The translations under genes and the position numbers were made by a program. A stretch of 63,488 nucleotides of DNA, the filler included, from Reclinomonas americana ATCC 50394 (Eukaryota), in the NCBI GenBank assembly GCA_048213135.1. It is 12 parts of 12 records of this genome, joined end to end, with 100 filler letters (N's around TTAATTAATTAA, not from the genome) between each part and the next. Parts side by side here need not be neighbours in the genome. Positions count along the whole stretch, not along the records: positions 33,565 to 41,280 come from AFZH01017787.1; positions 41,381 to 49,300 come from AFZH01017789.1; positions 49,401 to 52,465 come from AFZH01017792.1; 9 more parts are not named here. One strand, given 5' to 3'. The notes under the pieces are model-generated. The model was not told where the DNA came from and searched no databases. It saw nothing but the letters and a program-made list of their open reading frames with translations. Below, piece by piece: positions 34,126-50,827 of this stretch. The first letter of the stretch is position 1; every line of letters starts with the position of its first letter.

Positions 34126-34682
34126 CTCAGTGGTCACTTTTTGAGTGGAGCTCAAGTGCGGCAGTTGGAGGGACACACGAGAGCTATGCTCTCTGTCGCT
34201 GTCACTGCCGACGGACAACACGTCGTGAGCGGCAGTCGTGACTGCACTGTGCGAGTGTTGTCGCTGGCGAGTGGTGAGGAAGTGCGACGATTAGATGGAG
34301 AGGTGCTCCCTGTCGCCGTCACCCCCGATATCGTTGCATTGTGAGCGGAACTATAGATTGCGCAGTGCGAGTATGGTCGATGGTAACTGGAGAGTAAGTG
34401 CGCAGGTTGGAGGGACGCAATTGATGAAACTGCGTCACAGTCGATCAGCACGTGGTGACTATAGGTCATGTTTTGTCCACACTATGTGGCCTTACTCGGC
34501 GGGAGCTGGAGTGTGCGCGAGCGGCCATGCAGGCTCTACGGGAGATGTAGCAAAAACGGGTACGGGGGAGCGTTGAGTCTCGGTGCCTGCCGGAGATGGT
34601 GCTGCGGTGTTTCATCATATGCATCGAGGATGCAGGCCTGGTGCTGCACCGTTGCTGCATTAATCCCGCCTTGTGCCTGTGA
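34126..34682 (+). pseudogene. Truncated, degenerate WD40-family paralogue (copy A)
   Basis: Decayed blades (QLEGHTRAMLSVAVTADGQHVVSGSRDCTVRV), a frameshift, and in-frame TAA/TGA/TGA/TAG codons. It retains the family tail STLCGLTRRELECARAAMQALREM*...SRCLPEMVLRCF...LHRCCINPALCL*. Confidence 0.88.
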
Positions 34683-34915
34683 CCTGGTGCGGGAAGATGC
34701 AGGATGCACACAATAAAAGCAGTTGGGATGGTTCCTTGTTCAGCATGAGCATGAAAAGCCAGCGCCTCTGCACTGCGACTGCGCCAGCGTCGACTTCACC
34801 GAGTCACGAAGGACATCCAAATTCCGGCCAAATCGCTCTCTTCTTCGCTCTCACGAACGCACAGTTGCCTTGTCTCTCTCCCTCTCTCCCTCTCTCTCTC
34901 CCTCTCTCTCATCTC

Positions 34916-36007
34916 ATGACCTCCACCACCCCTCTCTTCGTCTGCAAGTCTCTGCTCAGACACGAGAGTACAATACGGTCTGTGACCTTCACTCCCGATG
35001 GCCAGCACATCATCAGTGGAAGTGATGATAGCAGAATGAGAGTGTGGTCTGTCGCGAGTGGAGAAGAAGTACGACGATTGGAGGGACACACTGGTCCAGT
35101 GCACTCTGTCGTCGTCACTCCCGATGGCCAACACGCTGTGAGCGGCAGCTGGGACCGCACAGTTCGTGTGTGGTCGCTGACGAGTGGAGAAGAAGTACGC
35201 CGGTTGGAGGGACACACAGCTGCGGTGGAGTGTGTCACCGTCACTCCTGATGGCCGTCACATCGTCAGCGGTGGTGTGTACTGCACAGTTCGAGTGTGGT
35301 CACTAGCAAGTAGTGGAAAGCAAGTGCGCGTGTTAAAGGGATACGAACGCGGCGTGAACTCGCTCGCCGTCACGAGCGATGGCGAGCGCATTGTGAGTGG
35401 GGCAATGGACGAGTTCGTGTGCGTGCGGTCACGTGCACTGGAGAGTGGGGAGGAGGTACGACGGTTGAAGGGGCACACCAATGGCGTTCTGTCAGTCGCC
35501 GTCACCGTCGATGGGTTGCACGTGGTGAGTGGCGGCATGGACTGCACAGTGCGAGTGTGGTCACTGGCGAGTGGAGAAGAGGTGCACCGACTCGAGGGGC
35601 ACGCGGATTGGGTGTGGTCGGTGGCCGTCGCTCCCGATGGTCGCCACGTTGTGAGTGGCTCCATGGACAGGACAGTGCGGGTGTGGTCGATGGAGAGTGG
35701 GGATGAAGTGCGCAGGTTGAAAGGGCACACTGCAGGCGTGTGGTCTGTAGCCGTCTCCCCCGATGGTCAGCATATTGTGAGTGGAGGTCGTGACGGAACG
35801 GTGCGTGTTTGGTCCACGCCGTGCGGCCTCGCTCGGGGAGAACTGGAGATGGCGCGAGCGGCGATGCAAGCTGTGCGGGAGATGCAGCGAGAAGGAGAAG
35901 AAGATGACTCGCGATGCCTGGCGGAGATGGTGCTCCGGTGCTTCATCGTGGAGGATGCAGGAGTGGTGCTTCATCGTTCGTTTGTCGATCCCGCGTTGTG
36001 CCTGTGA
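34916..36007 (+). CDS. Intronless 7-blade WD40 protein with a conserved C-terminal tail (copy B, 363 aa)
   Basis: ATG at 34916 (MTSTTPLFVCK). Seven ~42-aa LEGHT..V.SVAVTPDG.H.VSG..D.TVRVWSL repeats, then tail STPCGLAR..RCLAEMVLRCF..VDPALCL. Confidence 0.93.
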   Translation: MTSTTPLFVCKSLLRHESTIRSVTFTPDGQHIISGSDDSRMRVWSVASGEEVRRLEGHTGPVHSVVVTPDGQHAVSGSWDRTVRVWSLTSGEEVRRLEGHTAAVECVTVTPDGRHIVSGGVYCTVRVWSLASSGKQVRVLKGYERGVNSLAVTSDGERIVSGAMDEFVCVRSRALESGEEVRRLKGHTNGVLSVAVTVDGLHVVSGGMDCTVRVWSLASGEEVHRLEGHADWVWSVAVAPDGRHVVSGSMDRTVRVWSMESGDEVRRLKGHTAGVWSVAVSPDGQHIVSGGRDGTVRVWSTPCGLARGELEMARAAMQAVREMQREGEEDDSRCLAEMVLRCFIVEDAGVVLHRSFVDPALCL

Positions 36008-36309
36008 TCCGAGGCGTAGGAAGAAGGACAGCGTGCACAATTGAGCTGTGTGCCGCAACTCAGTATCGTTGTTGGGTGAAAGTTGCGCTTGTGATCTGAG
36101 GCTTGGAAAGAAACAGAGTGCATAATAAAGCAGTTGGGATGGTTCCTTGTCAAGCAAGCAAGCTTGAAAACCAGCGCCTGTTCAGCCAGCGTCGACTTCG
36201 CCTGGCGTCACGTGCACGAAGGACATCACACACGCATTCTGTCGTCTGTCTCGTCTCACGCGCACGCCCCTTACTTGCGCCTTCCCTCCCCCTCGTCTCT
36301 CTCTTTCCC

Positions 36310-49279: not shown

Positions 49280-49400
49280 GAGAGTAGTAGTAGTAGAAGG
49301 NNNNNNNNNNNNNNNNNNNNNNNNNNNNNNNNNNNNNNNNNNNNTTAATTAATTAANNNNNNNNNNNNNNNNNNNNNNNNNNNNNNNNNNNNNNNNNNNN

Positions 49401-49483
49401 TCGGGAGTGGCAGAGACAGACCATACGTCGCCGGCGTGCCCTTCCAGGTCGTGTTTGCAGAGGAAGAGAGGGGTGGCGGACAT
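49401..49483 (-). CDS. 5' fragment of another WD40-family paralogue (copy G), cut by the gap
   Basis: MSATPLFLCKHDLEGHAGDVWSVSATP matches the family N-terminus. Confidence 0.8.
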
Positions 49484-49741
49484 GGGTGGGAGGGAGAGAG
49501 AGAAGGGCGAGGAAAAGGCTCGGAGGATGGGCGTGAAGAAGAATGTGGGACAAGATTCAACATCAAGCTTCACTGACATACACGCAAAGGAGTTCAAGAA
49601 AGGAATCAGGTCGTTCAGACACGAGTCTGCAGCGACATCGACGTTGGCCAGCAATGCACCGAAGGCCACGGTGGGTGCACGGCACGCACGACCTCTGCTT
49701 CGGCGAGAACCATCGTCCATGACGTCGACCTTTGCTTCTTC

Positions 49742-50827
49742 TCACAGATGCAGTTGTGGATCCACGAGGCATCGATGCACCACAACCTCCGCCTCCTCCA
49801 CAATGAAACAGCGCATCACTAGCTCCGGCAAGCAGCGTGGATCTACCTCATCATCATCGCTCACGAACTGCATCTCTTGCACCGCCAGCATTGCCGATCG
49901 CGCTGTGACAAGCTCGCACTCAGCAAGGCCGCAGGGCGTGGACCACACTTGCACCGTTTTGTCGCAACACCCACTCACGATGTGTTGACCATCGGAAGAT
50001 ACAGCGACAGAAGTCACCCACTCAGCGAGATTCATTCGTTGCACAGCCTCACCACTCGCCACCGACCACACTCGCACTGTCTGGTCATTGCCCCCACTCA
50101 CCACATGCTGTCCATCTGGAGTGACGGCAACTGAGTTCACCATATAAGTGTGACCCTCCAGTCGCCGCACTTCCGCGCCACTCACAAGTGACCACACTCG
50201 CACTGTCTCATCACTGCTCCCACTCACAGCGTGCTGACCATCGGGAGTGGCAGCGACAGAGAACACCGCACCAGTGTGCCCCTCCAACTTTTGCACCACC
50301 TCTCCATCCGCCAGTGACCACACGCGAACTGACGTGTCAAAACTCCCAATCAAAAGATGATGACCATTGTGGGTGGTTGTGGTGGCAGAGTTCACCCAGT
50401 GAGTGTGTCCCTCAGGTCGCCGAACTTCTTCTCCGCCCGCCAGCGACCACATCCGCGCAGTTTCATCGGGGCTAACACTCACAATGTGCTGACAGTCGAG
50501 AGTGATAGTGACAAACAACACCCGTCCAGTGTGTCCTTCTAGCCGATGCACTTGTTCTCCAGTCGCCAGCGACCACACTCGCACAGTCTTGTCAGCACCG
50601 CCACTGACAATGTGTCGACCATCTGGAGTGACGGCGACTGAATGAACACGGCCAGTGTGCCCCTGCAGTCGTCGCACTTGTTCCCCACTTGCCAGTGACC
50701 ACACGCGCACTGTTTTGTCGTAACTGCCACTCACAATGTGTTGACTGTCGGGAGTGATGGAGACTGAGCTCACCTGATCGGTGTGCCCTCTCAGTGTGTA
50801 TTTGGAGAGGAAAGGAGCGGCAGACAT
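49742..50827 (-). CDS. Intronless 7-blade WD40 protein with a conserved C-terminal tail (copy F, 361 aa)
   Basis: Seven blades; tail STPCGLAECELVTARSAMLAVQEMQ..RCLPELVMRCFIVEEAEVVVHRCLVDPQLHL. Confidence 0.93.
   Translation of the reverse strand: MSAAPFLSKYTLRGHTDQVSSVSITPDSQHIVSGSYDKTVRVWSLASGEQVRRLQGHTGRVHSVAVTPDGRHIVSGGADKTVRVWSLATGEQVHRLEGHTGRVLFVTITLDCQHIVSVSPDETARMWSLAGGEEVRRPEGHTHWVNSATTTTHNGHHLLIGSFDTSVRVWSLADGEVVQKLEGHTGAVFSVAATPDGQHAVSGSSDETVRVWSLVSGAEVRRLEGHTYMVNSVAVTPDGQHVVSGGNDQTVRVWSVASGEAVQRMNLAEWVTSVAVSSDGQHIVSGCCDKTVQVWSTPCGLAECELVTARSAMLAVQEMQFVSDDDEVDPRCLPELVMRCFIVEEAEVVVHRCLVDPQLHL

Follow-up and report, generated by a model that had tools for sequence, protein, structure and literature searches.

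A group of WD40 genes in the jakobid Reclinomonas americana ATCC 50394 raises the question of why one protist should carry a row of small, closely similar propeller proteins, and what distinguishes one of them from the next. The genes lie in a 63,488-nt stretch of DNA (filler included) from GenBank assembly GCA_048213135.1, the whole of which we refer to as the window. The original prediction, made from the sequence alone, regarded them as a stand-alone, rapidly diversifying repertoire for the sensing of non-self or pathogens. Our analysis shows that the scaffold and a C-terminal tail are common to the paralogues, and that the differences fall mainly at five top-face loop residues per blade. 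We propose that the genes probably encode lineage-restricted, small cytosolic proteins, each made of a seven-bladed, consensus-like propeller and a private helical-hairpin tail of about 65 residues, and that they serve as a panel of binding adaptors. Each paralogue would bind a different ligand on its top face, most likely a protein or peptide, the constant tail would couple all paralogues to one common partner or assembly, and the adaptors of the panel would be interchangeable.

Two tandem arrays of WD40 genes

The window contains seven WD40 genes in two tandem arrays, with copies A-E arranged head-to-tail on the plus strand (34.0-40.0 kb) and copies F and G on the minus strand (50.8-49.4 kb). 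Reading frames, translations and a motif scan bore out the earlier claim of at least seven paralogues, A-E in tandem on one strand and F-G on the other, and the scan, run over all six frames of the window, confined the blades to these genes.

34004..34682, plus strand: copy A, a decayed pseudogene with blade remnants spread over three frames, with frameshifts and stops
34916..36007, plus strand: copy B, 363 aa, propeller at 34916-35812 and tail at 35813-36004, TGA stop; Pfam WD40 match at E=6e-78 in seven stretches
36310..37401, plus strand: copy C, 363 aa, propeller at 36310-37197 and tail at 37198-37398; the copy chosen for modelling
37577..38680, plus strand: copy D, 367 aa, propeller at 37577-38476 and tail at 38477-38677, with a degenerate blade 1; Pfam WD40 match at E=8e-63
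38841..39947, plus strand: copy E, 368 codons, seven blades and the tail, with a single in-frame TAA at 39525-39527
49742..50827, minus strand: copy F, 361 aa, propeller at 49943-50827 and tail at 49745-49942; Pfam WD40 match at E=3.5e-68
49401..49483, minus strand: copy G, 27 codons from the ATG at 49483 (MSATPLF... and onward into blade 1), ending at an N gap at 49401

The full copies follow one plan, a 14-residue N-terminus followed by seven blades of about 42 aa and a tail of 64-71 aa, and the blade number is seven in all five of them. Copies B, C, D and F have intact frames of 361-367 aa; two of the seven copies (A and E) are disrupted, and the remainder of copy G is lost in N gaps at 49357-49400 and 49301-49344. 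The tail of copy A is still recognisable and has an internal stop. TGA is the stop codon of all six complete or near-complete copies, and upstream of the ATG the frames of D and F are closed by stops at a distance of about 20 codons. In each intact gene the ATG comes straight after a CT-rich tract. Nucleotide identity among the copies is 66-76%, copy F being the most divergent of the intact ones (66-69% to B-E), and Tandem Repeats Finder reported 126-nt periods with 69-76% matches. A splice acceptor at the ATG was considered and rejected, given a CT tract without a following AG in B-E, and the WD40 genes appear to be intronless.

All four copies submitted to a Pfam domain scan matched WD40 (PF00400), with E values of 8e-63 to 6e-78 and 206-254 bits against a cut-off of 27, over six or seven stretches each. 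Among the best 25 of the 46-49 families matched per protein there were only propeller families and no NTPase/NACHT, death, TIR or other effector domain, and the tail follows directly after blade 7. The spacers between the genes measure 160-302 bp and therefore leave no room for an NTPase domain. The scan, the short N-terminus and the spacers together uphold the view that NACHT is absent and that the propeller is joined directly to a short conserved tail.

The sole defect of copy E is its TAA codon, which falls on variable position 6 of blade 6. A contig of a soil (rhizosphere) metagenome that is 97% identical over 39437-39587 has a C at 39525 (one contig, depth 2) and so reads CAA (Gln) there, which suggests that the stop may be a nonsense mutation that is recent or confined to a strain, or else erroneous. 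We also considered a code in which TAA specifies Gln (table 6); it would repair copy E, but the 842-codon, TAA-ending frame would then run into the neighbouring dehydrogenase gene, there was no other gain, and the code was rejected. A second contig of that metagenome, 151 nt in length, is identical to 36478-36628 of copy C, and the two contigs together suggest that soil is a habitat of the organism or of a near relative. This metagenome contained 6% of the sampled sequence words, and no RNA run was listed among the data sets that share them. The contigs of that metagenome that fall on the window are mostly 151-nt pieces, 24 of 39 being less than 90% alike, and say nothing firm about the size of the family.

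Variable positions of the blades

An alignment of the 35 blades of copies B-F confirmed the blade consensus as originally given. Entropy at unit positions 6, 7, 9, 25 and 27 was 3.10, 3.02, 3.46, 3.66 and 3.22 bits, respectively; the next highest columns reached 2.10 and 1.83 bits, and every non-variable column remained at or below 2.1 bits. Six variable positions had been claimed from the consensus, and five of these are hypervariable; the sixth, at the x that directly follows SG in SG-x-x-D, shows no more than a dimorphism of S (16 of 35 blades) and G (15), at 1.51 bits. Each propeller thus has 35 variable residues, five per blade, and the combination of residues at these positions is unique in every one of the 35 blades. 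Residue usage at the variable sites (174 residues) was strongly biased, with 20 W against 4.8 expected (p=8.5e-8) and 13 M against 3.1, whereas V (1 against 12.7), I (0 against 5.1) and L (3 against 10.6) were depleted. Such a composition is more readily explained by exposed binding residues than by drift.

The AlphaFold2 model of copy C has a mean predicted local distance difference test score (pLDDT) of 90.6 and a predicted template modelling score of 0.86. It shows 28 strands forming seven blades, with pLDDT above 90 over residues 11-300, and two tail helices (299-326 and 335-357). In all seven modelled blades two of the variable positions close the D-A loop, the next is residue two of strand A, and the remaining two lie on either side of the Asp in the three-residue B-C turn. 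D-A loops and B-C turns form the top face of the propeller in the established WD40 topology. When mapped onto the predicted structure, as had been suggested, the variable sites were therefore all in the D-A loop and B-C turn region and on the top face, an assignment made from secondary-structure position and known WD40 topology. A Foldseek search with the model returned 7big, 5yzv and 2ymu as the best matches (E about 1e-30, 37-39% identity), with E=2.8e-32 and a root-mean-square deviation (rmsd) of 1.0 Å to 7big, and TM scores for the bacterial and designed set of 0.94-0.96 on the target.

Constant tails and spacers beside divergent propellers

Sliding-window comparisons revealed that the copies are mosaics. 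From blade 5 to the end of the tail copies B and C have 81-89% identity, compared to 60-78% before, copies B and E are 77-88% identical over blades 1-2, and the tails of C, D and E are 83-95% identical. Within B-E, codons differed at identical amino acids in 36-48% of propeller columns compared to 12-23% of tail columns, and this difference was significant in five of the six pairs (Fisher p<0.05). The contrast was seen in none of the four pairs of copy F with B-E, where tail and propeller are equally divergent. The non-coding spacers of the plus-strand array are 86-92% identical over 130-173 nt; the C-to-D spacer and the D-to-E spacer (38681-38840), for example, are 92% identical over 130 columns.

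34683-34915, 36008-36309, 37402-37576 and 38681-38840, plus strand: spacers of the array, which share CACRAAGGACAT, CAGCGTCGA and TCTCTCACGC ahead of a CT tract and the ATG
37402..37576, plus strand: C-to-D spacer, which holds CACRAAGGACAT and TCTCTCACGC, then the CT tract to the ATG, without an AG before the ATG

The shared elements CACRAAGGACAT, CAGCGTCGA and TCTCTCACGC are candidate promoter or 5'-untranslated region elements of the family.

Between copies, the similarity of spacers and tails exceeds that of propeller synonymous sites, which rules out uniform divergence of the copies. One possibility is that tails and spacers were homogenised by conversion and that conversion was kept out of the propellers; the other possibility is that propeller segments were imported from divergent relatives. 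Whichever origin the mosaic has, this is a locus with a constant part and a variable part, and our comparisons show that the family changes in size by tandem duplication and gene death and that sequence is exchanged between its members in segments.

The tail and the range of the family

38477..38677, plus strand: constant tail of copy D as an example, 67 aa, a predicted antiparallel helical hairpin

The best-conserved motif of the tail is RCLPEMVLRCF(I/L)VE. Modelled alone with AlphaFold2, the tail of copy D gave a pLDDT of 82.1 and helices at residues 3-28 and 39-61. The tails end in LRL, LCL, LHL or LRI, which we take not to be tripeptides of the type 1 peroxisomal targeting signal. A zinc site in the tail was considered and rejected, only one Cys being invariant across eight tails.

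We searched for relatives of the tail in several collections. Two tails were scanned against Pfam at E up to 10, and the sole match was that of one tail to CENP-F_C_Rb_bdg at E=0.04; a sequence search of the PDB gave no match (best E=0.59), nor did the ESM Atlas, and none of 274 pattern matches among JGI metagenome contigs was confirmed. A near-length word search limited to the tail found nothing, and Foldseek with the tail model returned nothing at E up to 0.001, its weaker matches being generic hairpins. A profile built from five tails and run against 1.84 billion representative proteins matched three proteins, each of which ends in the tail after a propeller (two whole, one a fragment). The fragment, P0121 (116 aa), is recorded in EukProt as an open reading frame of a Reclinomonas americana expressed sequence tag (EST). 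Its identity is 63-68% to copies B-F, all five near-complete (E with its TAA), and 45.8% to copy A over 118 aa at 34365-34679 (tblastn). P0122 (394 aa) and P0123 (381 aa) come from assemblies of public runs, and consist of divergent, non-repetitive propellers and the tail, without a further domain. Conservation of the tail thus extends to relatives with only 21-29% identity to the window copies (tblastn), and since it is shared with relatives whose propellers are divergent and non-repetitive, the tail is older than the consensus-like propellers.

On the strength of these sequence searches the tail defines a rare family. The only named relative is the EST product of a jakobid, Reclinomonas americana itself, which supports the earlier view that this is a protist family and shows that one family member is transcribed in this organism. 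In the accessible parts of the literature on WD40 proteins of jakobids, Andalucia godoyi and Reclinomonas, we found no description of a family that combines WD40 with this tail.

Divergence between blades

Mean identity between the blades of one gene is 63% in C, 62% in E, 59% in B, 56% in F and 51% in D, and the best single pair of blades reaches 88%; at the DNA level the median identity between blades is 66% and the maximum 88%. By the Nei-Gojobori method the proportion of synonymous differences (pS) at scaffold codons is 0.57, corresponding to a synonymous distance (dS) of about 1.1 between blades. Synonymous sites between blades are incompletely saturated. Where amino acids are identical, the codon was also identical in 53% of comparisons, compared to 37.3 +/- 0.5% after shuffling of synonymous codons, and this excess indicates that the blades descend from one unit. 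The fraction of identical codons was 0.533 within a gene, 0.571 between genes at the same blade index and 0.523 at different indices. Such near-equal values within and between genes indicate a star-like relationship of the blades.

A codon model on a fixed DNA tree was used to estimate omega, the ratio of nonsynonymous distance (dN) to dS, by maximum likelihood (ML). Omega was 0.244 in the scaffold and 1.07 at the variable codons, where the tree length was about four times greater. A scaffold omega of 0.24 together with dS of about 1 predicts roughly the protein identity that we observed, and no special mechanism for an 'invariant scaffold' is therefore needed.

Alternative interpretations

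Several points weigh against the adaptor panel that we propose. To our knowledge, top-face residues differ between the blades of any WD40 protein, so that variability of the top face alone is not special. The omega of the variable codons is not different from 1 (log-likelihood -655.471 with omega free and -655.488 with omega = 1). In 17 phylogenetically independent nearest blade pairs the ratio of variable-codon dN to scaffold dS was 1.54 (bootstrap 1.03-2.65; scaffold dN/dS 0.18), but the distances behind this ratio are close to saturation and were only crudely corrected. The least diverged blade pairs are B6/C6, B7/E7, B1/E1 and B7/C7; in these four the proportion of nonsynonymous differences at variable sites (0.14-0.26) was lower than scaffold pS (0.26-0.36), and the variable residues are mostly still shared. 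The variable codons evolve at close to the synonymous rate, about fourfold that of the scaffold, with no demonstrated excess over neutrality. The rapid diversification that had been predicted, with an excess of nonsynonymous change at the x positions, is thus not apparent from the blade dS, the ML omega or the closest pairs. The mosaic could stem from import of divergent propeller segments of unseen family members and not from selection against homogenisation. The tail of the full-length copy C model has a pLDDT of only 51-80 (moderate confidence), a wide structure search (VIA) with the tail gave a best Z of 8.8 with all matches generic helical hairpins, and the assembly has gaps. In an alternative that the rates would also fit, the propellers were amplified some time ago from one blade and are slowly differentiating by drift, the five positions being merely the least constrained surface sites of a redundant and partly decaying family; the protein divergence expected without any special mechanism, the nearly equal relatedness of blades whether or not they share a gene or a blade index, and the disruption of two of seven copies all speak for it. 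However, the residues at the variable sites are far from mutational expectation, with W and M about fourfold enriched and V, I and L depleted, and four copies keep intact frames of about 363 aa despite dS of about 1. The similarity of spacers and tails, higher than that of propeller synonymous sites, is not a product of uniform drift, and the tail is conserved in quite distant relatives. The residue bias and the mosaic weaken the pure-drift reading, which we regard as improbable.

An innate repertoire for sensing non-self or pathogens, in which the faces would recognise foreign proteins (of prey bacteria, viruses or conspecifics) and the tail would trigger a response, in analogy to HET-E/HNWD or to WRAP/STAND proteins without the NTPase switch, is possible but doubtful. 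Its attraction lies in the coincidence of the variable positions with the selected codons of HET-E (in the accessible part of the source cited below), in the closest propeller relatives, P0001 and P0002, whose propellers follow an APAF-1 helical domain, in the unique residue combination of each blade, and in the pairing of a constant tail and spacer with a variable propeller. Tandem arrays, pseudogenes and the in-frame stop further match the turnover pattern of immune-type propellers, as given in the accessible part of PMC9218822. It is opposed by the tail without a known match, the lack of NTPase, death, TIR or other effector domains among the best 25 of the 46-49 Pfam families, an omega not above 1, the old divergence of the blades (dS about 1) and the constant repeat number of seven among the five full copies. 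Speculative, and in our estimate improbable as well, is an NTPase-free recognition system organised as a variable-region/constant-region gene family. In such a system selection would keep the 35-residue top faces different and spare linked synonymous sites from homogenisation, conversion would keep the orphan tail and the promoter-bearing spacers uniform, and many specificities would be linked to one effector through the tail, a new module for signalling or docking. A bacterivorous jakobid-like flagellate would use the whole to sense proteins of prey, symbionts or viruses in its cytosol. The best propeller matches are mostly metagenomic and bacterial, and eleven pairs of 44-N gaps interrupt the window, one of them truncating G, which might raise the suspicion of bacterial contamination, recent horizontal transfer or a mis-assembled repeat collapse. 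Against such an origin, the GC content inside the arrays (0.58-0.59) is like that of the flanks (0.49-0.66 across the window, per 2 kb), the tail occurs only in eukaryote-type records, one of them from EukProt, and the copies are different enough (66-76% nucleotide identity) to be assembled separately. Because the neighbouring genes are eukaryotic, including a PITH-domain gene with a canonical intron acceptor, and an independent metagenome contig matches copy C exactly over 151 nt, contamination or mis-assembly is very unlikely.

Neighbouring genes and other features of the window

Beside the WD40 arrays the window has genes for a C2H2 zinc-finger protein, a PITH-domain protein, a short-chain dehydrogenase, and vanin-like and NAAA-like hydrolases.

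2812-4029, plus strand: PITH-domain gene, interrupted by a long CT-rich low-complexity stretch, with a canonical TTTCAG acceptor at about 3620
8357-18292, minus strand: frames with a protein kinase domain (16718-18292, E=7.5e-13), an adenylate/guanylate cyclase domain (8542-8997, E=3.7e-12) and a P-loop NTPase of the AAA_16/NPHP3_N/NACHT type (15744-16379 and 14720-15781), with about 5 kb of frames without an assigned family in between
40008-40958: tandem repeat directly downstream of copy E, unit of 438 nt, 2.2 copies, 86% matches, without WD40 similarity
50998-53372, minus strand: vanin/biotinidase-like gene (CN_hydrolase and Vanin_C) directly upstream of copy F
55034-56152, plus strand: NAAA/acid-ceramidase-like frame a few kb beyond the vanin-like gene

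The acceptor of the PITH-domain gene indicates that the genome has spliceosomal introns. The frames at 8357-18292 may represent one large STAND-like multidomain gene with introns or frameshifts; they lie about 16 kb from the WD40 array, on the strand opposite to A-E, and are separate from the WD40 genes. The vanin-like and NAAA-like genes both encode amidases. Every gap in the window (11 places, e.g. 33465-33564, 49301-49400 and 52466-52565) consists of a pair of 44 N with exactly 12 bases between them, which looks like an assembly or masking convention and not biology; one such pair truncates copy G and another splits the vanin-like gene. An Rfam search of the window gave no match.

Comparison with known systems

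The proposed panel would share the logic of F-box/WD40 and WD40/SOCS-box substrate receptors, which pair a variable propeller face for targets with a short, constant helical module that docks to a shared machine. The LPEMVLRCF stretch of the tail may resemble the start of an F-box. No F-box or SOCS box was matched in the Pfam scan of two tails at E up to 10, and unlike the F-box/WD40 proteins, the window copies carry their tail at the C-terminus, where it is too short after the LP motif for a full F-box.

Gcp1-Gcp3, the Pex7-like WD40 proteins of jakobids, heteroloboseans and malawimonads (Horvathova et al. 2021, PMC8134430), share with the window family a narrow protist range that includes Reclinomonas, and some of them have C-terminal signals, according to the accessible part of that report. 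They are single orthologues related to Pex7, unlike the consensus-like tandem family of the window. The three tail motifs were present in none of the nine text-searchable files among the ten supplementary files on Gcp1-3 of that paper.

The HET-E/HET-D/HNWD proteins of Podospora anserina have, like the window family, a 42-residue unit, and the consensus GH-x-x-x-V-x-S...SG-x-x-D-x-T. In HET-E, codons 7, 9, 25 and 27 are positively selected and codons 8 and 26 conserved, in the d-a loop and the b-c turn (Paoletti 2007, PMC1805685, in the part accessible to us). The window positions 7, 9, 25 and 27 are variable in the same register, with conserved 8 and 26 between them, so that the proposed match to the ligand-surface sites of HET-E holds at these four positions. 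Both families also have pseudogene members and sequence exchange between members. The two differ in several respects. The repeats of HNWD proteins have about 85% identity, which concerted evolution continues to maintain, according to the accessible part of Dyrka 2014 (PMC4986451), whereas the window blades are 51-63% identical within a gene (protein) and 66% in the median (DNA), and they cannot be called highly internally conserved in the Podospora sense, as they had been. Neither do the identical-codon fractions, alike within and between genes, point to ongoing concerted evolution of the repeats as in HNWD. HNWD proteins carry NACHT, with or without HET, whereas NACHT was not found in the window copies; repeat number varies in HNWD (PMC1805685, accessible part) and is seven in all five full window copies; and positive selection has been demonstrated in Podospora, compared to an omega of about 1 at the variable codons here. 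HNWD proteins are also without a tail comparable to that of the window family.

The closest relatives, both by sequence (49-53%) and by fold, are the WRAP-type propellers of bacterial STAND/APAF-1-like proteins (2ymu and 5yzv, and the designed WRAP-T, 7big), which have the scaffold motif VAVTPDG...VSGS.D.T.RVW in common with the window copies and superimpose with an rmsd of about 1 Å. The nearest propeller sequences are metagenomic proteins with 49-53% identity, and in the best two, P0001 and P0002 (49% identical), the propeller comes after an APAF-1 helical domain (APAF1_C, E=6e-7 and 1.5e-8). Disrupted copies are common in highly repetitive propellers, a pattern linked to the turnover of immune-type propellers, and the cut-off for this class is at least 60% internal symmetry between blades (Pereira and Lupas 2022, PMC9218822, accessible part). 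Only C (63%) and E (62%) reach this value, and the published measure may differ from mean blade identity. The WRAP-type propellers are the C-terminal sensors of large prokaryotic NTPases, whereas the window propeller forms a complete small eukaryotic protein, in tandem arrays and with an orphan helical tail.

Almost all known repetitive WD40 propellers whose top faces are hypervariable belong to STAND/NLR-type NTPases of bacteria and fungi, where they form the sensor end. In the window a propeller of this kind, variable at the same positions, makes up a complete small protein of a deep-branching protist lineage, with a tail that occurs in only three other records. If the paralogues truly bind different ligands, they would demonstrate that such a sensor functions in the absence of an NTPase switch, and would provide a compact natural scaffold series (about 300 residues, 35 variable positions) for the evolution of propeller specificity. 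The homogenised tails and spacers set against divergent propellers would further offer a clean case of conversion and selection partitioning a gene. What is new compared to these systems is a STAND-type repetitive WD40 propeller that stands free of the NTPase, ends in an orphan tail and forms tandem gene arrays in a protist.

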